Sequence record: MZ726791.1
Reading direction: 5' to 3' (one strand)
Source of the DNA: Escherichia phage vB_EcoM_ASO1A
Length of the DNA stretch: 64,000 nucleotides
A model generated the notes under the pieces. That model did no database searches and had not been told where the DNA came from. It was given only the letters and a program-made list of their open reading frames with translations. The translations under genes and the position numbers were made by a program. Shown here in pieces: positions 8,080-14,416 of the stretch; positions within the stretch are counted from its first letter, which is position 1, and the number at the start of each line of letters is the position of its first letter.

Positions 8080-8138
8080 ATCAACGGGGAGGGAATGACC
8101 TTCCCCACTAAATAAAATCCTAAACTGGAGATTCAAAA
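8080..8138 (+). promoter_or_regulatory. conserved leader cassette type A (copy 1)
   Basis: ATCAACGGGGAGGGAATGACCTTCCCCACTAAATAAA..CTAAACTGGAGATTC hairpin plus SD directly before ATG. Confidence 0.7.
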
Positions 8139-8327
8139 ATGGCATCAAGAAAAATTAAAGTTGGCGATGAGGTTAACATTAAGCACGAATACTCTTACAA
8201 AATGCTAACTATACGCTCTTATAAGGTTTATCAGGTGGAAGCTATCCACAAAGATAATACTTTTTCCTTAAAAGGGTATAGCGAACGTTTCCCTGCTGAA
8301 CTCTTTGAGAAATGGAGCGCGAAATAA
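8139..8327 (+). CDS. hypothetical early protein
   Basis: ORF directly after type A leader. Confidence 0.5.
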   Translation: MASRKIKVGDEVNIKHEYSYKMLTIRSYKVYQVEAIHKDNTFSLKGYSERFPAELFEKWSAK

Positions 8328-8533
8328 TGCTTTACAGTCGTGAATTGATGGTTACAACTAACGTTAACACAAAGGTAAAACGTTTTTACATGCAAATTTG
8401 TGGCGTATGGTCTAGAATATCAGAAGCTGACTATTGCAACTATGTAGAAACAGCTATAAACTCTAATTGCTACCTTACAAGAAATACTAAGAATTTTACA
8501 AGGCAAACAGCGATTTACTATTACGATAAATAA
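8327..8533 (+). CDS. hypothetical early protein
   Basis: ATG at 8327 with GGAG RBS inside track ORF 8312..8533. Confidence 0.4.
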   Translation: MLYSRELMVTTNVNTKVKRFYMQICGVWSRISEADYCNYVETAINSNCYLTRNTKNFTRQTAIYYYDK

Positions 8534-8620
8534 AAGTACTTTACAAGGGGCTTATAGTTCGATAAAGTAAGCCTCAGATAAAGAGCTTTACCACTCAATC
8601 CTAAATTGGAGAACTTAAAA
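8534..8620 (+). promoter_or_regulatory. conserved leader cassette type B (copy 1)
   Basis: AGTACTTTACAAGGGGCTTATAGTTCGATAAAGTAAGCC.CAGATAAAGAGCTTTACCACT..CCTAAATTGGAGA. Confidence 0.7.
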
Positions 8621-8914
8621 ATGGCTATTATCAAAAACGTTGTAATTACTGCAAAGACTCGTGATGACGCTCGCGTTATGGCTAAAAAGTTATGCGGGAA
8701 AGTGGTTGACAATGGAAAACAATCTGCTGTAAGGTGGGGCGTGAAGGTTGATAAACAGTTGAAGTTAAAAAATTCACCGATAAACCTTTTTACATGTGTA
8801 AACACTATCGGGAAGACAAATGTATACACGAAAAAGGCATACATTAGACGCGTAGCATTAACATCCCCCATTCGTACAATGAGAAGTTATGCAAAGCTGA
8901 AAATTAACAAATAA
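8621..8914 (+). CDS. hypothetical early protein
   Basis: ATG 8621 after GGAGA RBS; track start 8606 is a TTG inside the leader. Confidence 0.5.
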   Translation: MAIIKNVVITAKTRDDARVMAKKLCGKVVDNGKQSAVRWGVKVDKQLKLKNSPINLFTCVNTIGKTNVYTKKAYIRRVALTSPIRTMRSYAKLKINK

Positions 8915-8999
8915 AGTACTTTACAGGGGGCTTAAAAGCTGATACCTTAAGCCCCAGATAAAGAGCTTTACCACTAAATCCTAAACTGGAGATTCAAAA
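8915..8999 (+). promoter_or_regulatory. conserved leader cassette type B (copy 2)
   Basis: Same motif family as 8534-8620. Confidence 0.65.
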
Positions 9000-9512
9000 A
9001 TGAAAACTGTAGACGCTACCTTTGAAGTTGTAAAAGAAAAATTCACTATTATTTATGAAGCTGTCAATTGCTTTGAAGCAAGCCATAATCTTGATAATTG
9101 GGAATTTACAGATGACCATCAAGGCGGTGTGACGATTAAAAATCCTAACTGTCAGCGTAATGAATTTAAATATGCAATCCCTTTACATTACAGCCTTAAA
9201 CAGCTTTCAAGTGACTATGCAAAACAAGGCCGGGCAAATCCATCAAAAGAGGCTTACATCAGCTTACAGAAAGAACTAGAAAGAGATTTAGAGGCTTCAG
9301 AATATAACATTGCCGCGAAAGTTGTAGATGCAAATGGCAGCACTGTTTTAGAAAGTTTTTATATTGGTTACGCTTTCGATTGGTGCTACAGTGACGGCGA
9401 TGATTTAGAGGATAGACTAAAAGAAGAGGTGAACAACGCAGACGCAGAATCTGAAGTATTAGAACGTTTGGAATCGTTGAAAGACTCAGTGATGAATATC
9501 TTTAAGAACTAA
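9000..9512 (+). CDS. hypothetical early protein (acidic)
   Basis: 170-aa ORF after type B leader. Confidence 0.55.
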   Translation: MKTVDATFEVVKEKFTIIYEAVNCFEASHNLDNWEFTDDHQGGVTIKNPNCQRNEFKYAIPLHYSLKQLSSDYAKQGRANPSKEAYISLQKELERDLEASEYNIAAKVVDANGSTVLESFYIGYAFDWCYSDGDDLEDRLKEEVNNADAESEVLERLESLKDSVMNIFKN

Positions 9513-9604
9513 ATAGATTCCTTTACACGGGGTTATCAAGCTGGTAGGATAGCCCCAGATAAAGAGATTTATCAAATAAAGCCCTTAAACTAGGAGATTC
9601 TAAA
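9513..9604 (+). promoter_or_regulatory. conserved leader cassette type B (divergent copy 3)
   Basis: GGGGTTATCAAGCTGGTAGGATAGCCCCAGATAAAGAG...TAAACTAGGAGATTC. Confidence 0.55.
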
Positions 9605-9901
9605 ATGAAATTATCAAATAAAGTTAGGGAAAACCTTAGTAAATTACTCAATAAAATTGATTTTATCGAGACATCAAGAAATAGTCATGATGTTATGGAA
9701 TGGTTACATGGCAAAATAAAAGGCCGTCGTGTAGTAATTTGCTTATGGAATAGTTGCAGGGAGTATAAAAAACCTGTATTGCAAGTTAATATATACGATG
9801 ATACTTTTAAAAGTCCTGTAAAGTCTAAAAGCGATTTATTAGAATCTTATGAGATATCTGTAAGTGGCAAAGTATCACGTAAAGAGGAAACACCATGTTA
9901 A
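9605..9901 (+). CDS. hypothetical early protein
   Basis: 98-aa ORF after leader. Confidence 0.5.
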   Translation: MKLSNKVRENLSKLLNKIDFIETSRNSHDVMEWLHGKIKGRRVVICLWNSCREYKKPVLQVNIYDDTFKSPVKSKSDLLESYEISVSGKVSRKEETPC

Positions 9902-10227
9902 TGACTGGTATCACTGCAATCATTGCCATTTTCGCTCTATATAAGGCATATAAAGCCTATAATCTAGCAAATAAGGCAACCACCCAGCAGGTTAGCAATA
10001 GCCTTGTAGAAAGCTTTCTAGGGCGTTTAAGTGATGAGCAAATAAAGCGGCTAGAGATGAGCTTCAGATATAAAGCGAAAACCTATCAGATAAGTGACAT
10101 CTTCAAAGATAATTTTCAGTTAGTTGATGATTATAATTCTCTGATAAATGCTTTAAATGTCAGTGACTTAAAAGACTACTACGTTGTAATTGTTCAAGAA
10201 TTGAGCAAACGAAAACAAAACTGTTGA
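9895..10227 (+). CDS. hypothetical early protein (hydrophobic N-terminus)
   Basis: 110-aa ORF, start overlaps previous stop. Confidence 0.45.
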   Translation: MLMTGITAIIAIFALYKAYKAYNLANKATTQQVSNSLVESFLGRLSDEQIKRLEMSFRYKAKTYQISDIFKDNFQLVDDYNSLINALNVSDLKDYYVVIVQELSKRKQNC

Positions 10228-12865: not shown

Positions 12866-12927
12866 ATCAACGGGGAGGGAATGACCTTCCCCACTAAGTA
12901 AAGTCCTTAAACTAGGAGATTCTAAAA
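12866..12927 (+). promoter_or_regulatory. conserved leader cassette type A (copy 4)
   Basis: ATCAACGGGGAGGGAATGACCTTCCCCACTAAGTAAAGTCCTTAAACTAGGAGATTC. Confidence 0.7.
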
Positions 12928-13269
12928 ATGGCTTATGTAACCATAATTACCGATAAAGCTGGCGCATCTTGGTCAACTCAGGTTAGTGATAAGATGTCAC
13001 CTATGCAGTGCCTAAAATACTTTGAACAGTGGAACAAAGGCGAGGACACAAGCCCCTTTCAAGTGATGCAGATTATCCATGTAGACAACGAAGGGAATAA
13101 AACGACCTTGAACAGTGAATACTACGCAAGCCGTTTTGAAACGAGAAGTAAAACAATGAAGCTTTTACGTGAATCCGGTTATGCCCATATCGCCGCGTTA
13201 ATCTGGGATGACCTGCTAAAAAGTCAGCGTATTAGCTATGTAAAGCCTGAAAAAATATTCATCAGTTAA
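12928..13269 (+). CDS. hypothetical early protein
   Basis: 113-aa ORF after type A leader. Confidence 0.5.
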   Translation: MAYVTIITDKAGASWSTQVSDKMSPMQCLKYFEQWNKGEDTSPFQVMQIIHVDNEGNKTTLNSEYYASRFETRSKTMKLLRESGYAHIAALIWDDLLKSQRISYVKPEKIFIS

Positions 13270-13431
13270 TCAATAACTTACAAAAAACTTTTAAAAAAGT
13301 GTTGACAATACCCCTTGACATTGGTAACTTTGTTCGAGGGGGTTTATCTAAAAGGGATTCACTTAAAAGATTCTTTATAGATAAGCTCAAAAAATTACTT
13401 GCAATCAACTATCAAAACAAGTAAATTACTA

Positions 13432-13489
13432 ATCAACGGGAAGGCAATAACCTCCCCACTAAATAAAGTCCTAAACTGGAGATTCTAAA
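13432..13489 (+). promoter_or_regulatory. conserved leader cassette type A (copy 5, variant hairpin)
   Basis: ATCAACGGGAAGGCAATAACCTCCCCACTAAATAAAGTCCTAAACTGGAGATTC. Confidence 0.65.
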
Positions 13490-14020
13490 ATGAACAAATT
13501 TCAAGCTATCAACTTCATTCGTTCAAATACTGTAATGTCTAAGCCTGTAAAAGATACATACGAATTCCGTTGTAATGGGGTACATTTCGCAACAATCACC
13601 AAATCAGAAAACGGGACTTATTACGTTCATCGTCGTAATGTTTACACTGTTGTAGTCTCTCACTTTATGCAAGCTGTAGCGGAATTATTACCGTTATTCT
13701 TAGAGATTTACTTAGATGAGTGTAAAAACGTTCACAACCACGTTAAAAACCTTTTAAACGGTTATAAAATGGCTTATGAACGTTCTATCAAGTCCTTAAA
13801 CAAGTTCTATAAAGCCCCTGAAAACTCTGTTGCTTCAGCCTATGGCGTAGGCGGTTGGACTGTTAGTCTCTTCGAAGTGGAAGAAATCGAGCTTTACGAC
13901 CATCGACCTAACGGTTACTCTAAGACTCTCGGTGAAGGTTTAACGTTCAATATCAAGAACTTAGAAAAAACTTTAAAAGATATTGAAAAAGATATTGACG
14001 AGACAATAAAAAGTCTGTAA
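13490..14020 (+). CDS. hypothetical early protein
   Basis: 176-aa ORF after type A leader. Confidence 0.55.
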   Translation: MNKFQAINFIRSNTVMSKPVKDTYEFRCNGVHFATITKSENGTYYVHRRNVYTVVVSHFMQAVAELLPLFLEIYLDECKNVHNHVKNLLNGYKMAYERSIKSLNKFYKAPENSVASAYGVGGWTVSLFEVEEIELYDHRPNGYSKTLGEGLTFNIKNLEKTLKDIEKDIDETIKSL

Positions 14021-14027
14021 ATTGTCA

Positions 14028-14086
14028 ATCAACGGGGAGGGAATGACCTTCCCCACTAAATAAAGTCCTAAACTGGAGTTATCAAG
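14028..14086 (+). promoter_or_regulatory. conserved leader cassette type A (copy 6)
   Basis: Identical core to copy 2. Confidence 0.7.
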
Positions 14087-14350
14087 ATGGAAAACGTAGA
14101 ATTAACCACACTTTTACAAATTGCAACTGACAAAGAAGATGTAGCACTGTTTCACCGTATCGAAAGCGATTTATTCAATGGTGAAATCATCAAAGAATCT
14201 TATGAAGTTGTCGGATTCAAAGATGGTAAAGCGTTTGGCTTTTTTGACCTCGACAAAGGCAACGCTGTCACAAAGTATGATGTTGTATCTTGTGAGATTC
14301 TTACAAAATACAACGAAAAAAGGCTTGCAACATACGCCAATATACAGTAA
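14087..14350 (+). CDS. hypothetical early protein
   Basis: 87-aa ORF after type A leader. Confidence 0.5.
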   Translation: MENVELTTLLQIATDKEDVALFHRIESDLFNGEIIKESYEVVGFKDGKAFGFFDLDKGNAVTKYDVVSCEILTKYNEKRLATYANIQ

Positions 14351-14357
14351 ATTACTA

Positions 14358-14416
14358 ATCAACGGGAGGCGATAACCTCCCCACTAAATAAAACCCTTAA
14401 ACTAGGAGATTCAAAA
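14358..14416 (+). promoter_or_regulatory. conserved leader cassette type A (copy 7, variant hairpin)
   Basis: ATCAACGGGAGGCGATAACCTCCCCACTAAATAAAACCCTTAAACTAGGAGATTC. Confidence 0.65.

Follow-up and report, generated by a model that had tools for sequence, protein, structure and literature searches.

Repeated cassettes with putative promoters and conserved hairpins precede the small early genes of a Felixounavirus and bound gene gain and loss

Introduction

The early region of Escherichia phage vB_EcoM_ASO1A, analysed here in a window of 64,000 nt of its sequence record (MZ726791.1), raises the question of why a set of closely similar intergenic repeats should stand directly in front of small genes whose products are unrelated to one another. 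The region, which is 100% identical to that of Escherichia phage vB_EcoM_ASO1B (MZ726792.1; Felixounavirus, Ounavirinae) and has the same coordinates as that record, represents the + strand 'left arm' downstream of rIIA/rIIB and contains 17 small genes, designated here by their ASO1B numbers. An earlier sequence-only reading had recognized two families of leader cassettes (types A and B), each with a hairpin and a Shine-Dalgarno (SD) sequence, and had suggested a translational operator, an RNA processing site or transcription attenuation as possible roles.

Parts of these repeats have been reported in relatives of this phage. The genome paper of Felix O1 listed 57-bp and 39-bp 'direct repeats' without interpreting them, and stated that promoters and temporal control were unknown (PMC3185647), while the genome announcement of Citrobacter phage Mordin likened a 26-bp repeat, CCAACAATCCTAAACTGGAGAATCTA, to the start-associated sequence (SAS) of other phages (PMC4611695). 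In the literature on transcriptomics and promoters of Felix O1 and Felixounavirus, no start-site data were found, only the direct repeats, the SAS-like repeat and routine promoter counts.

We consider it most probable (at roughly 70%) that the 13 repeats serve orphan early genes as modular expression cassettes, each combining a promoter for host sigma-70 RNA polymerase, a hairpin and a ribosome-binding site, and that they represent the Ounavirinae counterpart of the promoter-early stem-loop (PeSL) elements of T4-like phages. The evidence consists of the anatomy of the cassettes, the conserved position of their promoter-like boxes, the conservation of RNA pairing and the occurrence of indel breakpoints at the cassettes, from which promoter activity, start sites and hairpin roles are predicted.

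Cassette inventory of the early region

All 13 cassettes described by the sequence-only reading (seven of type A and six of type B) were located, with approximately none expected by chance. They lie on the + strand between 8047 and 14416 (6.4 kb), and none was found elsewhere in the window. The first cassette begins at 8047 rather than at 8080, where the region had been taken to start, and every cassette ends at the ATG of an open reading frame (ORF). The type A hairpin GGGGAGGGAATGACCTTCCCC occurs in exactly five copies (8086, 10263, 11314, 12872 and 14034; shuffled-sequence expectation 0), and two variant copies (13437 and 14360) carry the same flanks, TAAATTnnnnATCAACGGG, giving a total of seven specific matches. 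The type B motif CCCCAGATAAAGAGCTTTAC is present in six copies (8572, 8952, 9553, 10811, 11609 and 11944; 0.01 expected). Individual cassettes and associated features are as follows.

8047..8138, + strand: cassette A1 (type A), -35 TTGACT at 8047-8052, -10 TAATAT at 8070-8075, ATCAAC, hairpin at 8086-8106; ATG 8139 (ASO1B_012)
8119-8134, + strand: ribosome-binding module of A1, CCTAAACTGGAGATTC
8534..8620, + strand: cassette B1 (type B), TTTACA at 8540-8545, TAAAGT at 8563-8568; ATG 8621 (013)
8547-8575, + strand: upper stem of B1, GGGGCTTAT/GTAAGCCTC, with one G·U pair, followed by AGATAAAGAGCTTTAC and the ribosome-binding module
8915..8999, + strand: cassette B2 (type B), TTTACA at 8920-8925, TGn before TACCTT, upper stem GGGGCTTAA/TTAAGCCCC; ATG 9000 (014)
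9513..9604, + strand: cassette B3 (type B), TTTACA at 9522-9527, TAGGAT at 9545-9550; ATG 9605 (015)
within 9513..9604, + strand: upper stem of B3, GGGGTTATC/GATAGCCCC, with a U·G pair, and the lower-stem variant T...A
10224..10316, + strand: cassette A2 (type A), TTGACA-N17-TAAATT at 10224-10252, with the stop codon of gene 016 falling within the -35, hairpin at 10263-10283; ATG 10317 (017)
10476-10500, + strand: lone ribosome-binding module AACCCTTAAACTAGGAGCTTTTAAA, an eighth partial copy; ATG 10501 (ASO1B_018)
10774..10859, + strand: cassette B4 (type B), TTTACA at 10779-10784, TAAAGT at 10802-10807, hairpin at 10786-10814; ATG 10860 (019)
11275..11367, + strand: cassette A3 (type A), promoter boxes at 11275-11303 the same as in A2, hairpin at 11314-11334; ATG 11368 (020)
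11572..11657, + strand: cassette B5 (type B), TTTACA at 11577-11582, TGn before TAACTT, upper stem with G·U; ATG 11658 (021)
11907..11991, + strand: cassette B6 (type B), TTTACA at 11912-11917, TAAAGT at 11935-11940, hairpin at 11919-11947; ATG 11992 (022)
12833..12927, + strand: cassette A4 (type A), TAGACA-N17-TAAATT at 12833-12861, hairpin at 12872-12892, ribosome-binding form CCTTAAACTAGGAG; ATG 12928 (024)
13399..13489, + strand: cassette A5 (type A), TTGCAA-N17-TAAATT, variant hairpin GGGAAGGCAATAACCTCCCC with one A·C mismatch; ATG 13490 (025)
13995..14086, + strand: cassette A6 (type A), TTGACG-N17-TAAATT at 13995-14023, hairpin at 14034-14054; ATG 14087 (026)
14325..14416, + strand: cassette A7 (type A), TTGCAA-N17-TAAATT, variant hairpin GGGAGGCGATAACCTCCC, all Watson-Crick; ATG 14417 (027)
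14704..14733, + strand: canonical intrinsic terminator, AGCCCCTATTTAAAGGGGCT followed by TTTTTT, which closes the early + strand unit

Aligned copies are alike over ~90-100 nt, so similarity limited to the SD region is ruled out as an explanation of the repeats. The genes that follow the cassettes had been described as unrelated, and comparison of the 17 region proteins with each other indeed revealed no similarity (best E=0.06). A Pfam scan of the same 17 proteins matched no family and gave no hint of a cassette-binding protein or nuclease.

Type A cassettes

Type A cassettes were found to have a fixed order of parts, comprising a TTGACA-like -35 hexamer, 17 bp, a TAnnnT -10 hexamer, 4 nt, the sequence ATCAAC, a GGGG…CCCC hairpin, an A-rich spacer and the ribosome-binding module shared with type B. 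The sequence-only reading had noticed a promoter in two copies (10224 and 11275); these two are identical, but all seven copies in the window possess the -35 exactly 17 bp before the -10 (TAAATT, or TAATAT in one case). The spacer between the boxes is copy-specific in sequence, and from the -10 onwards the copies are nearly identical.

Relatives of type A were gathered from ten annotated Ounavirinae loci and 48 IMG/VR stretches by means of ATCAAC, the hairpin and the ribosome-binding module only, without using the promoter boxes as an anchor, which yielded 116 unique sequences (159 instances). TAnnnT was present exactly 4 nt upstream of ATCAAC in 116 of the 116 unique sequences, and a TTGACA-like hexamer was located 17 bp further upstream in 114 of them. 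When the window was scanned with a promoter consensus, promoters were listed at six of the seven type A and four of the six type B cassettes.

The -10 and the type A hairpin are 10 nt apart, and at this one fixed position downstream of the promoter the hairpin occurs in 43 sequence versions, in which inner pairs alternate between A-U, G·U and G-C. Examples include GGGGAGGG-AATGA-CCTTCCCC, GGGGAGG-GAAA-CTTCCCC, GGGGC-AAGATAAA-GCCCC, GGGGAAG-AAATCA-CTTCCCC and GGGC-AAACAA-GCCC. Transcription is predicted, from promoter geometry, to start inside ATCAAC, which would place the hairpin 3-6 nt from the RNA 5' end. A comparable arrangement is found in the ompA 5' untranslated region and the T7 gene 10 leader, where a stem-loop situated within a few nt of the 5' terminus precedes an A/U-rich spacer and a strong SD, the difference being that the type A start site is predicted from promoter geometry only. 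By analogy with these leaders, type A mRNA would begin with a stem-loop that may shield it from 5'-end-dependent decay.

An IHF site at ATCAAC was considered and rejected, as the TTR part of the IHF consensus does not fit.

Type B cassettes

The type B element is predicted to fold into a three-part hairpin, in which a 3x3 internal loop separates an upper stem of 9 bp from a middle stem of 5 bp (CUUUA/UAAAG), and a lower stem of 6-7 bp (AAAGU/GCUUU) forms the base. With 20-21 bp in total, it exhibits folding energies of -20 to -27.6 kcal/mol and z-scores of -2.5 to -4.4, the full hairpin of B4 marking the extreme of both ranges (-27.6 kcal/mol, z=-4.4). It is longer than the 8 bp recognized by the sequence-only reading, which had also not reported a promoter signature within it; the hairpin covers the spacer, the -10 and the discriminator of this signature.

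Relatives of type B were collected by the hairpin and AGATAAAGAG only, again without reference to promoter boxes, from four Ounavirinae genera and IMG/VR contigs, resulting in 138 unique sequences (212 instances). TTTACA was identified in 137 of the 138, and TAnnnT 17 or 18 bp downstream in 137 of the 138. Fourteen different hexamers occur at the -10, in which the T, the A and the last T are fixed and the middle three bases take all four letters. The T and A are located in the hairpin loop, where adjacent columns vary, and such fixed positions amid variable loop columns are the hallmark of a sigma-70 -10 element, for which this hexamer is a candidate. Transcription is predicted to start at the A of AGATAAAGAG, i.e. 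at (C)AGAUAAAG, just after the upper stem. A start 3' of the hairpin implies that the structure would be present only in read-through RNA from upstream, and absent from RNA initiated at the type B element itself.

That the hairpins are conserved as structures was borne out by covariation analysis. Across 55 unique type B sequences, pairing was observed in 91.6% of cells, compared with 35-55% when the partners were slid. The MAFFT alignment misplaces one gap in the subgroup that has one base pair fewer (GGGGTTATC/GATAGCCCC), which renders the alignment count for pairs 28-30 pessimistic; these pairs were therefore recounted from the stem ends inward. In Erwinia phages, the upper stem shows the compensatory change GGGG/CCCC to GGTG/CACC (G-C to U-A), and in the lower stem G...C is replaced by T...A at positions 49 nt apart, this pair being GC in 111, UA in 14, GU in two and unpaired in 11 of the 138 unique sequences. 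The upper stem is uninterrupted in all 138 unique copies and mostly measures 9 bp. G·U pairs account for 102 of 1240 upper-stem pairs, with at least one in 96 of the 138 copies, and uninterrupted stems average 9.0 bp on the + strand versus 6.6 bp on the - strand. Since G·U pairs would be A·C mismatches on the opposite strand, the type B structure is selected on the + strand, most simply as RNA. For both cassette types, the retention of pairing through compensatory changes and + strand-only G·U pairs points to RNA.

Upstream-initiated RNA would fold the type B element into the three-part hairpin, which could then serve as a 3' stabiliser or as a processing site, possibly for RNase III, separating the cistrons. 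A further, tentative possibility is that the ~60 nt of type B hold two overlapping codes, namely a sigma-70 promoter in double-stranded DNA and an RNase III-type processing or stabilising hairpin in read-through RNA. Expression of each orphan gene might then have two sources, its own start and the processing of a polycistron, and types A and B together might constitute an integrase-free, integron-like gene-shuffling system across the Ounavirinae.

In Citrobacter phage Mordin, two tandem type B cores with no gene between them are joined at a CTTTAC repeat (positions 2728-2851 of locus L003), which looks like the footprint of a gene deletion or of unequal exchange between cassettes. A second promoter at the downstream CTTTAC was dismissed, as a -10 is absent.

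The shared ribosome-binding module

Type A and type B cassettes both end in (C)CTAAACTGGAG or CCTTAAACTAGGAG, followed by ~8 nt and the ATG. This module is conserved over ~26 nt and contains GGAG in every cassette. In all cassettes, a complementary UCC or CCU stands 5' of the SD and can form with it a 3-bp mini-hairpin with the loop UAAACU (e.g. 8118-8130 and 12906-12919). Two coupled insertions distinguish the module forms TCCTAAACTGGA and CCTTAAACTAGG while the pairing of the mini-hairpin is kept, and Erwinia phages carry CCTTATAAAGG.

The spacer variant of the module is genome-specific across both cassette types and unrelated genes (GGAGATTC in Felixounavirus/Suspvirus and GGAGAATC in Mooglevirus), indicative of homogenisation within genomes. 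The sequence-only reading had argued that near-identity of the copies reflects selection on the cassette itself. This argument is incomplete, as recombination and homogenisation, as seen in chimeric cassettes (see below) and in the genome-specific module variants, also keep copies alike.

The lone module at 10476-10500 bears on a gene start. ASO1B_018 (10459-10773) is annotated from GTG 10459, and both the module and the XTG1 and Felix O1 orthologues (MYTTNN...) favour ATG 10501, which is likely to be the true start.

Distribution in Ounavirinae and association with gene gain and loss

Related copies of the cassettes, for which the sequence-only reading had proposed a search in related genomes, were found across four Ounavirinae genera (the 116 unique type A and 138 unique type B sequences described above). 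With both cassette types as queries, blastn matches were confined to Ounavirinae records plus mislabelled records, and no similarity was detected outside this subfamily. Cassette cores of Mooglevirus are still 83-87% identical; Mooglevirus genomes are ~47-49% identical overall (PMC4611695).

A further property, missed by the sequence-only reading, is that genes have been gained and lost between related phages with their breakpoints at the cassettes. In the region, ASO1B and Felix O1 differ by five indels, each of which is bounded by cassettes, and four display the repeat-overlap signature of direct-repeat recombination. For example, ASO1B genes 020-023 (11368-12835) are missing from Felix O1, in which a single cassette between ORF20 and ORF21 is a chimera whose left part (gene end and promoter) corresponds to A3 and whose right part (ribosome-binding form and gene 024) corresponds to A4, A3 and A4 representing the left-hand and right-hand repeats of this indel, respectively. 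Gene 017 is an insertion that is missing in XTG1 and Felix O1 and has ribosome-binding modules at both borders, the lone module at 10476-10500 forming its right-hand junction, and XTG1 possesses an additional gene between two type B cassettes. Crossovers fall anywhere within the shared 35-100 bp. Orthologous genes also differ in cassette type between genera: in front of gene 024, the type A of ASO1B is replaced by type B in Mordin, and gene 021, preceded by type B in ASO1B, has type A in both SUSP2 and Mordin.

As stretches of 60-100 bp that are repeated among unrelated genes, the cassettes would act as portable homology, and recombination between them could insert, delete or swap genes together with their own expression signals.

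Erwinia phage Coenus carries a third family of hairpin cassettes (TTGCAA/TTTACA + GGGGTTACGGTTATGAGACTATAACCCC + GTCGAAAC...; positions 6598-6673, 9088-9168 and 9493-9568 of locus L005), which lack TAnnnT at 17-18 bp and may be a promoter-less or differently read variant.

Comparison with known systems

PeSL elements have been described in the T4-like phages RB49/phi1, PST and nt-1 by Arbiol et al. 2010 (PMC2839356) and Comeau et al. 2014 (PMC4122927). Both systems consist of repeated intergenic cassettes amid small orphan early genes, and in both an A/T-rich stretch, sigma-70-like -35 and -10 boxes, a GGGG...CCCC stem-loop with G·T pairs, an SD and a start codon occur together; A/T-rich flanks were likewise seen upstream of the cassette promoters in the present sequence. 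PeSL stem-loops have two placements, one between or over the boxes, which type B shares, and one downstream of the -10, which corresponds to type A; indels or replacements between close relatives occur at the cassettes in both systems.

The two systems differ in lineage, the present cassettes belonging to Ounavirinae rather than T4-like phages and exhibiting no sequence homology to the RB49/phi1 elements. As blastn matches were obtained only from Ounavirinae and mislabelled records, the resemblance is judged to be one of kind, not of descent. Furthermore, two tightly defined families are present here versus five loose PeSL subclasses, the predicted type A transcript clearly includes its hairpin, and the three-part hairpin of type B, with covariation in the lower stem, reaches 20-21 bp. 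For PeSLs, promoter activity, terminator activity and mini-circles have been assayed experimentally. The literature on this subfamily had only fragments of the element as unexplained repeats, and an element of this kind is already described in T4-like phages.

Certain features of the cassettes recall other systems. The SAS and extended SAS (ESAS) of cluster K mycobacteriophages are conserved SD-containing sequences directly upstream of many start codons; only the last ~26 nt of the present cassettes correspond to these, as the 3' end of a larger promoter-hairpin unit. T7 R sites and Escherichia coli stabilisers of the repetitive extragenic palindromic (REP) type are long imperfect hairpins between cistrons which, without a U-run, leave a protective 3' hairpin on the upstream mRNA. 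The modelled type B structure resembles the T7 R sites, which lie between early cistrons read by host polymerase, in that it forms an imperfect RNA duplex of ~20 bp between early cistrons (stems of 6-7, 5 and 9 bp and a 3x3 internal loop), but T7 sites do not overlap promoters, and neither sequence similarity nor an Rfam match was found. In the Rfam search, only tRNAs were obtained at the gathering threshold, and a permissive search gave one sub-threshold chance match to a microRNA precursor in the region.

Two further known elements were compared with the cassettes and rejected. A T4 MotA-box middle promoter has the wrong spacing, and MotA/AsiA are not reported in Felix O1; a lambda nut/boxB-type antitermination site is not supported, as the copies are too many and there are no terminators between them.

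Alternative explanations and points against the proposed function

The preferred explanation, that the repeats are expression cassettes with sigma-70 promoters, has to be weighed against readings in which the hairpin alone matters. Type B could be an RNA element without promoter activity, with type A promoters driving all transcription and the hairpins serving as RNase III-type processing or 3'-stabilising sites like the T7 R sites. The three-part structure with its 3x3 internal loop and strongly negative z-score is what such a view would stress, together with the G·U pairs and compensatory changes suggestive of selection on the + strand RNA, the pairing of the CTTTA of the putative -35 with TAAAG, and the position of the most conserved block, AGATAAAGAGCTTT, which makes up the 3' side of the lower stems. 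We nevertheless regard it as unlikely, as the T and A of TAnnnT, at a distance of 17-18 bp from TTTACA, are fixed in 137 of 138 copies despite variation in the loop columns on either side, the CA of TTTACA is also invariant within the internal loop, and the use of type A or type B for orthologues, depending on the genus, suggests that the two have the same function. Somewhat more doubtful is the proposal that the hairpins are terminators or attenuators insulating each gene from upstream transcription, a role put forward for PeSL stem-loops. A PeSL stem-loop reduced lacZ expression as much as rrnB T1 (PMC2839356), and the GenBank record annotates the A2 hairpin as a WebGeSTer terminator. Yet no U-run follows any cassette hairpin, as the sequence-only reading had already pointed out in setting simple terminators aside, and a terminator scan listed none at the cassettes while listing those at 7648 and 14704-14733. 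A type A hairpin that terminates would abort the very transcript in which it lies, and what follows the upper stem in type B is itself taken up in the pairing of the lower stems. Attenuation, one of the roles offered earlier, is unlikely for the same reasons, the unit being closed by the canonical terminator at 14704-14733.

A common post-transcriptional operator, at which a phage protein binds the hairpin or module to stop translation or a RegB-like nuclease cuts GGAG, would account for the conservation of the module over ~26 nt, which is more than an SD needs (PMC4611695), as well as for the invariant GGAG and the complementary CCU/UCC flanking the SD. However, the hairpins differ between type A and type B and among the 43 type A variants, leaving no single protein-binding sequence, and no RegB-like or other recognisable domain was detected in the 17 early proteins, to which the scan was confined. 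Promoter signatures and indel breakpoints would also be left unexplained, and this reading is considered improbable. The inverted repeats might instead be single-stranded DNA recombination sites resembling integron attC, at which a dedicated recombinase moves gene cassettes. An array of small orphan genes with a hairpin-forming repeat between each would suit such a system, strand-specific G·T pairs would also fit folded + strand DNA, and the authors of the PeSL work drew an integron analogy (PMC2839356). This appears highly improbable, given that no integrase or recombinase was detected among the 17 region proteins, that crossovers occur anywhere in 35-100 bp of homology, as in ordinary homologous recombination, and that the promoter and ribosome-binding content would have no explanation.

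For the cassettes as sigma-70 expression units, the hairpin roles considered most likely are those of a 5' stabiliser in type A and of a 3' stabiliser or RNase III-like processing site in type B, with host sigma-70 RNA polymerase expected to read both types. Several points weigh against this explanation. Promoter activity, start sites and RNA ends are predicted throughout for Ounavirinae phages; among the type B -10 hexamers, several are weak (TACCTT and TAGGAT), and TGn precedes only about half. The CTTTA of the type B -35 doubles as an invariant arm of the middle stem, and as this stem never varies, its conservation is not assignable to DNA or RNA. Many copies are related by descent or gene conversion, so that covariation counts overstate the number of independent events, and in some Erwinia-phage relatives, hairpin cassettes (TTGCAAAGGGGTTACGG...TAACCCC) have no correctly spaced TAnnnT. 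In Felix O1, reverse transcription PCR showed that ORFs 16, 20, 21 and 22 peak 5 min after infection (PMC3185647), but ORFs 17, 19 and 23, which also have cassettes, belong to the 25-min class, the timing by this method being coarse (PMC3185647). No correlation was observed between the timing class of Felix O1 ORFs and cassette type.

Other features of the region

At 8327-8533, an unannotated gene encodes 68 aa with 96% identity to Felix O1 ORF15 (Felix01p030). As its ATG and the stop codon of ASO1B_012 overlap (TAATG), the gene is probably translationally coupled to ASO1B_012. A C-rich tract, cccaacccctctccccctcttactccccctctccc, is located at 7860-7935 within a 430-nt non-coding stretch 5' of the first cassette, and a similar C-rich sequence, CCCACCCTCCCCTCTACC, occupies the same position in Erwinia phage Coenus.

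The spacer between gene 024 and A5 (13296-13400) contains two strong hairpins (-29.9 kcal/mol, z=-4.1), the first of which has two TTGACA motifs within a CCCC...GGGG inverted repeat; a promoter and a terminator are annotated there in GenBank. Directly downstream of the last early gene, at 14676-14691, lies a small hairpin (GGGGCTAAATAGCCCC, then AGATACC) that resembles a decayed type B core, and the true terminator comes next.

A non-coding gap of ~1.5 kb (14730-16250) separates the early + strand unit from the - strand genes. It contains dozens of short degenerate repeats (cTGTTAAGa, cTTGTTAGn and CTATAAAG), often 10-11, 20 or 31 nt apart, which give it the appearance of an iteron, origin or protein-binding array. 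A gap of similar size is found at the equivalent position in Felix O1, Mordin and SUSP2, and Erwinia phage Coenus carries TCTTCTAAAC repeats 3' of its early unit.

Conclusions

The cassettes, whose promoter activity is predicted, may represent compact and strong expression modules for phage engineering. As Felix O1-like phages are used in typing and biocontrol, it is also of practical relevance that the cassettes mark sites of accessory-gene turnover and help to correct gene starts. For the biology of these phages, they provide a concrete, testable map of about a dozen putative early promoters per genome. The PeSL concept of portable promoter-hairpin units that steer gene exchange to safe intergenic sites would thereby be extended from T4-like phages to an unrelated myovirus subfamily, suggesting convergent evolution of this strategy.

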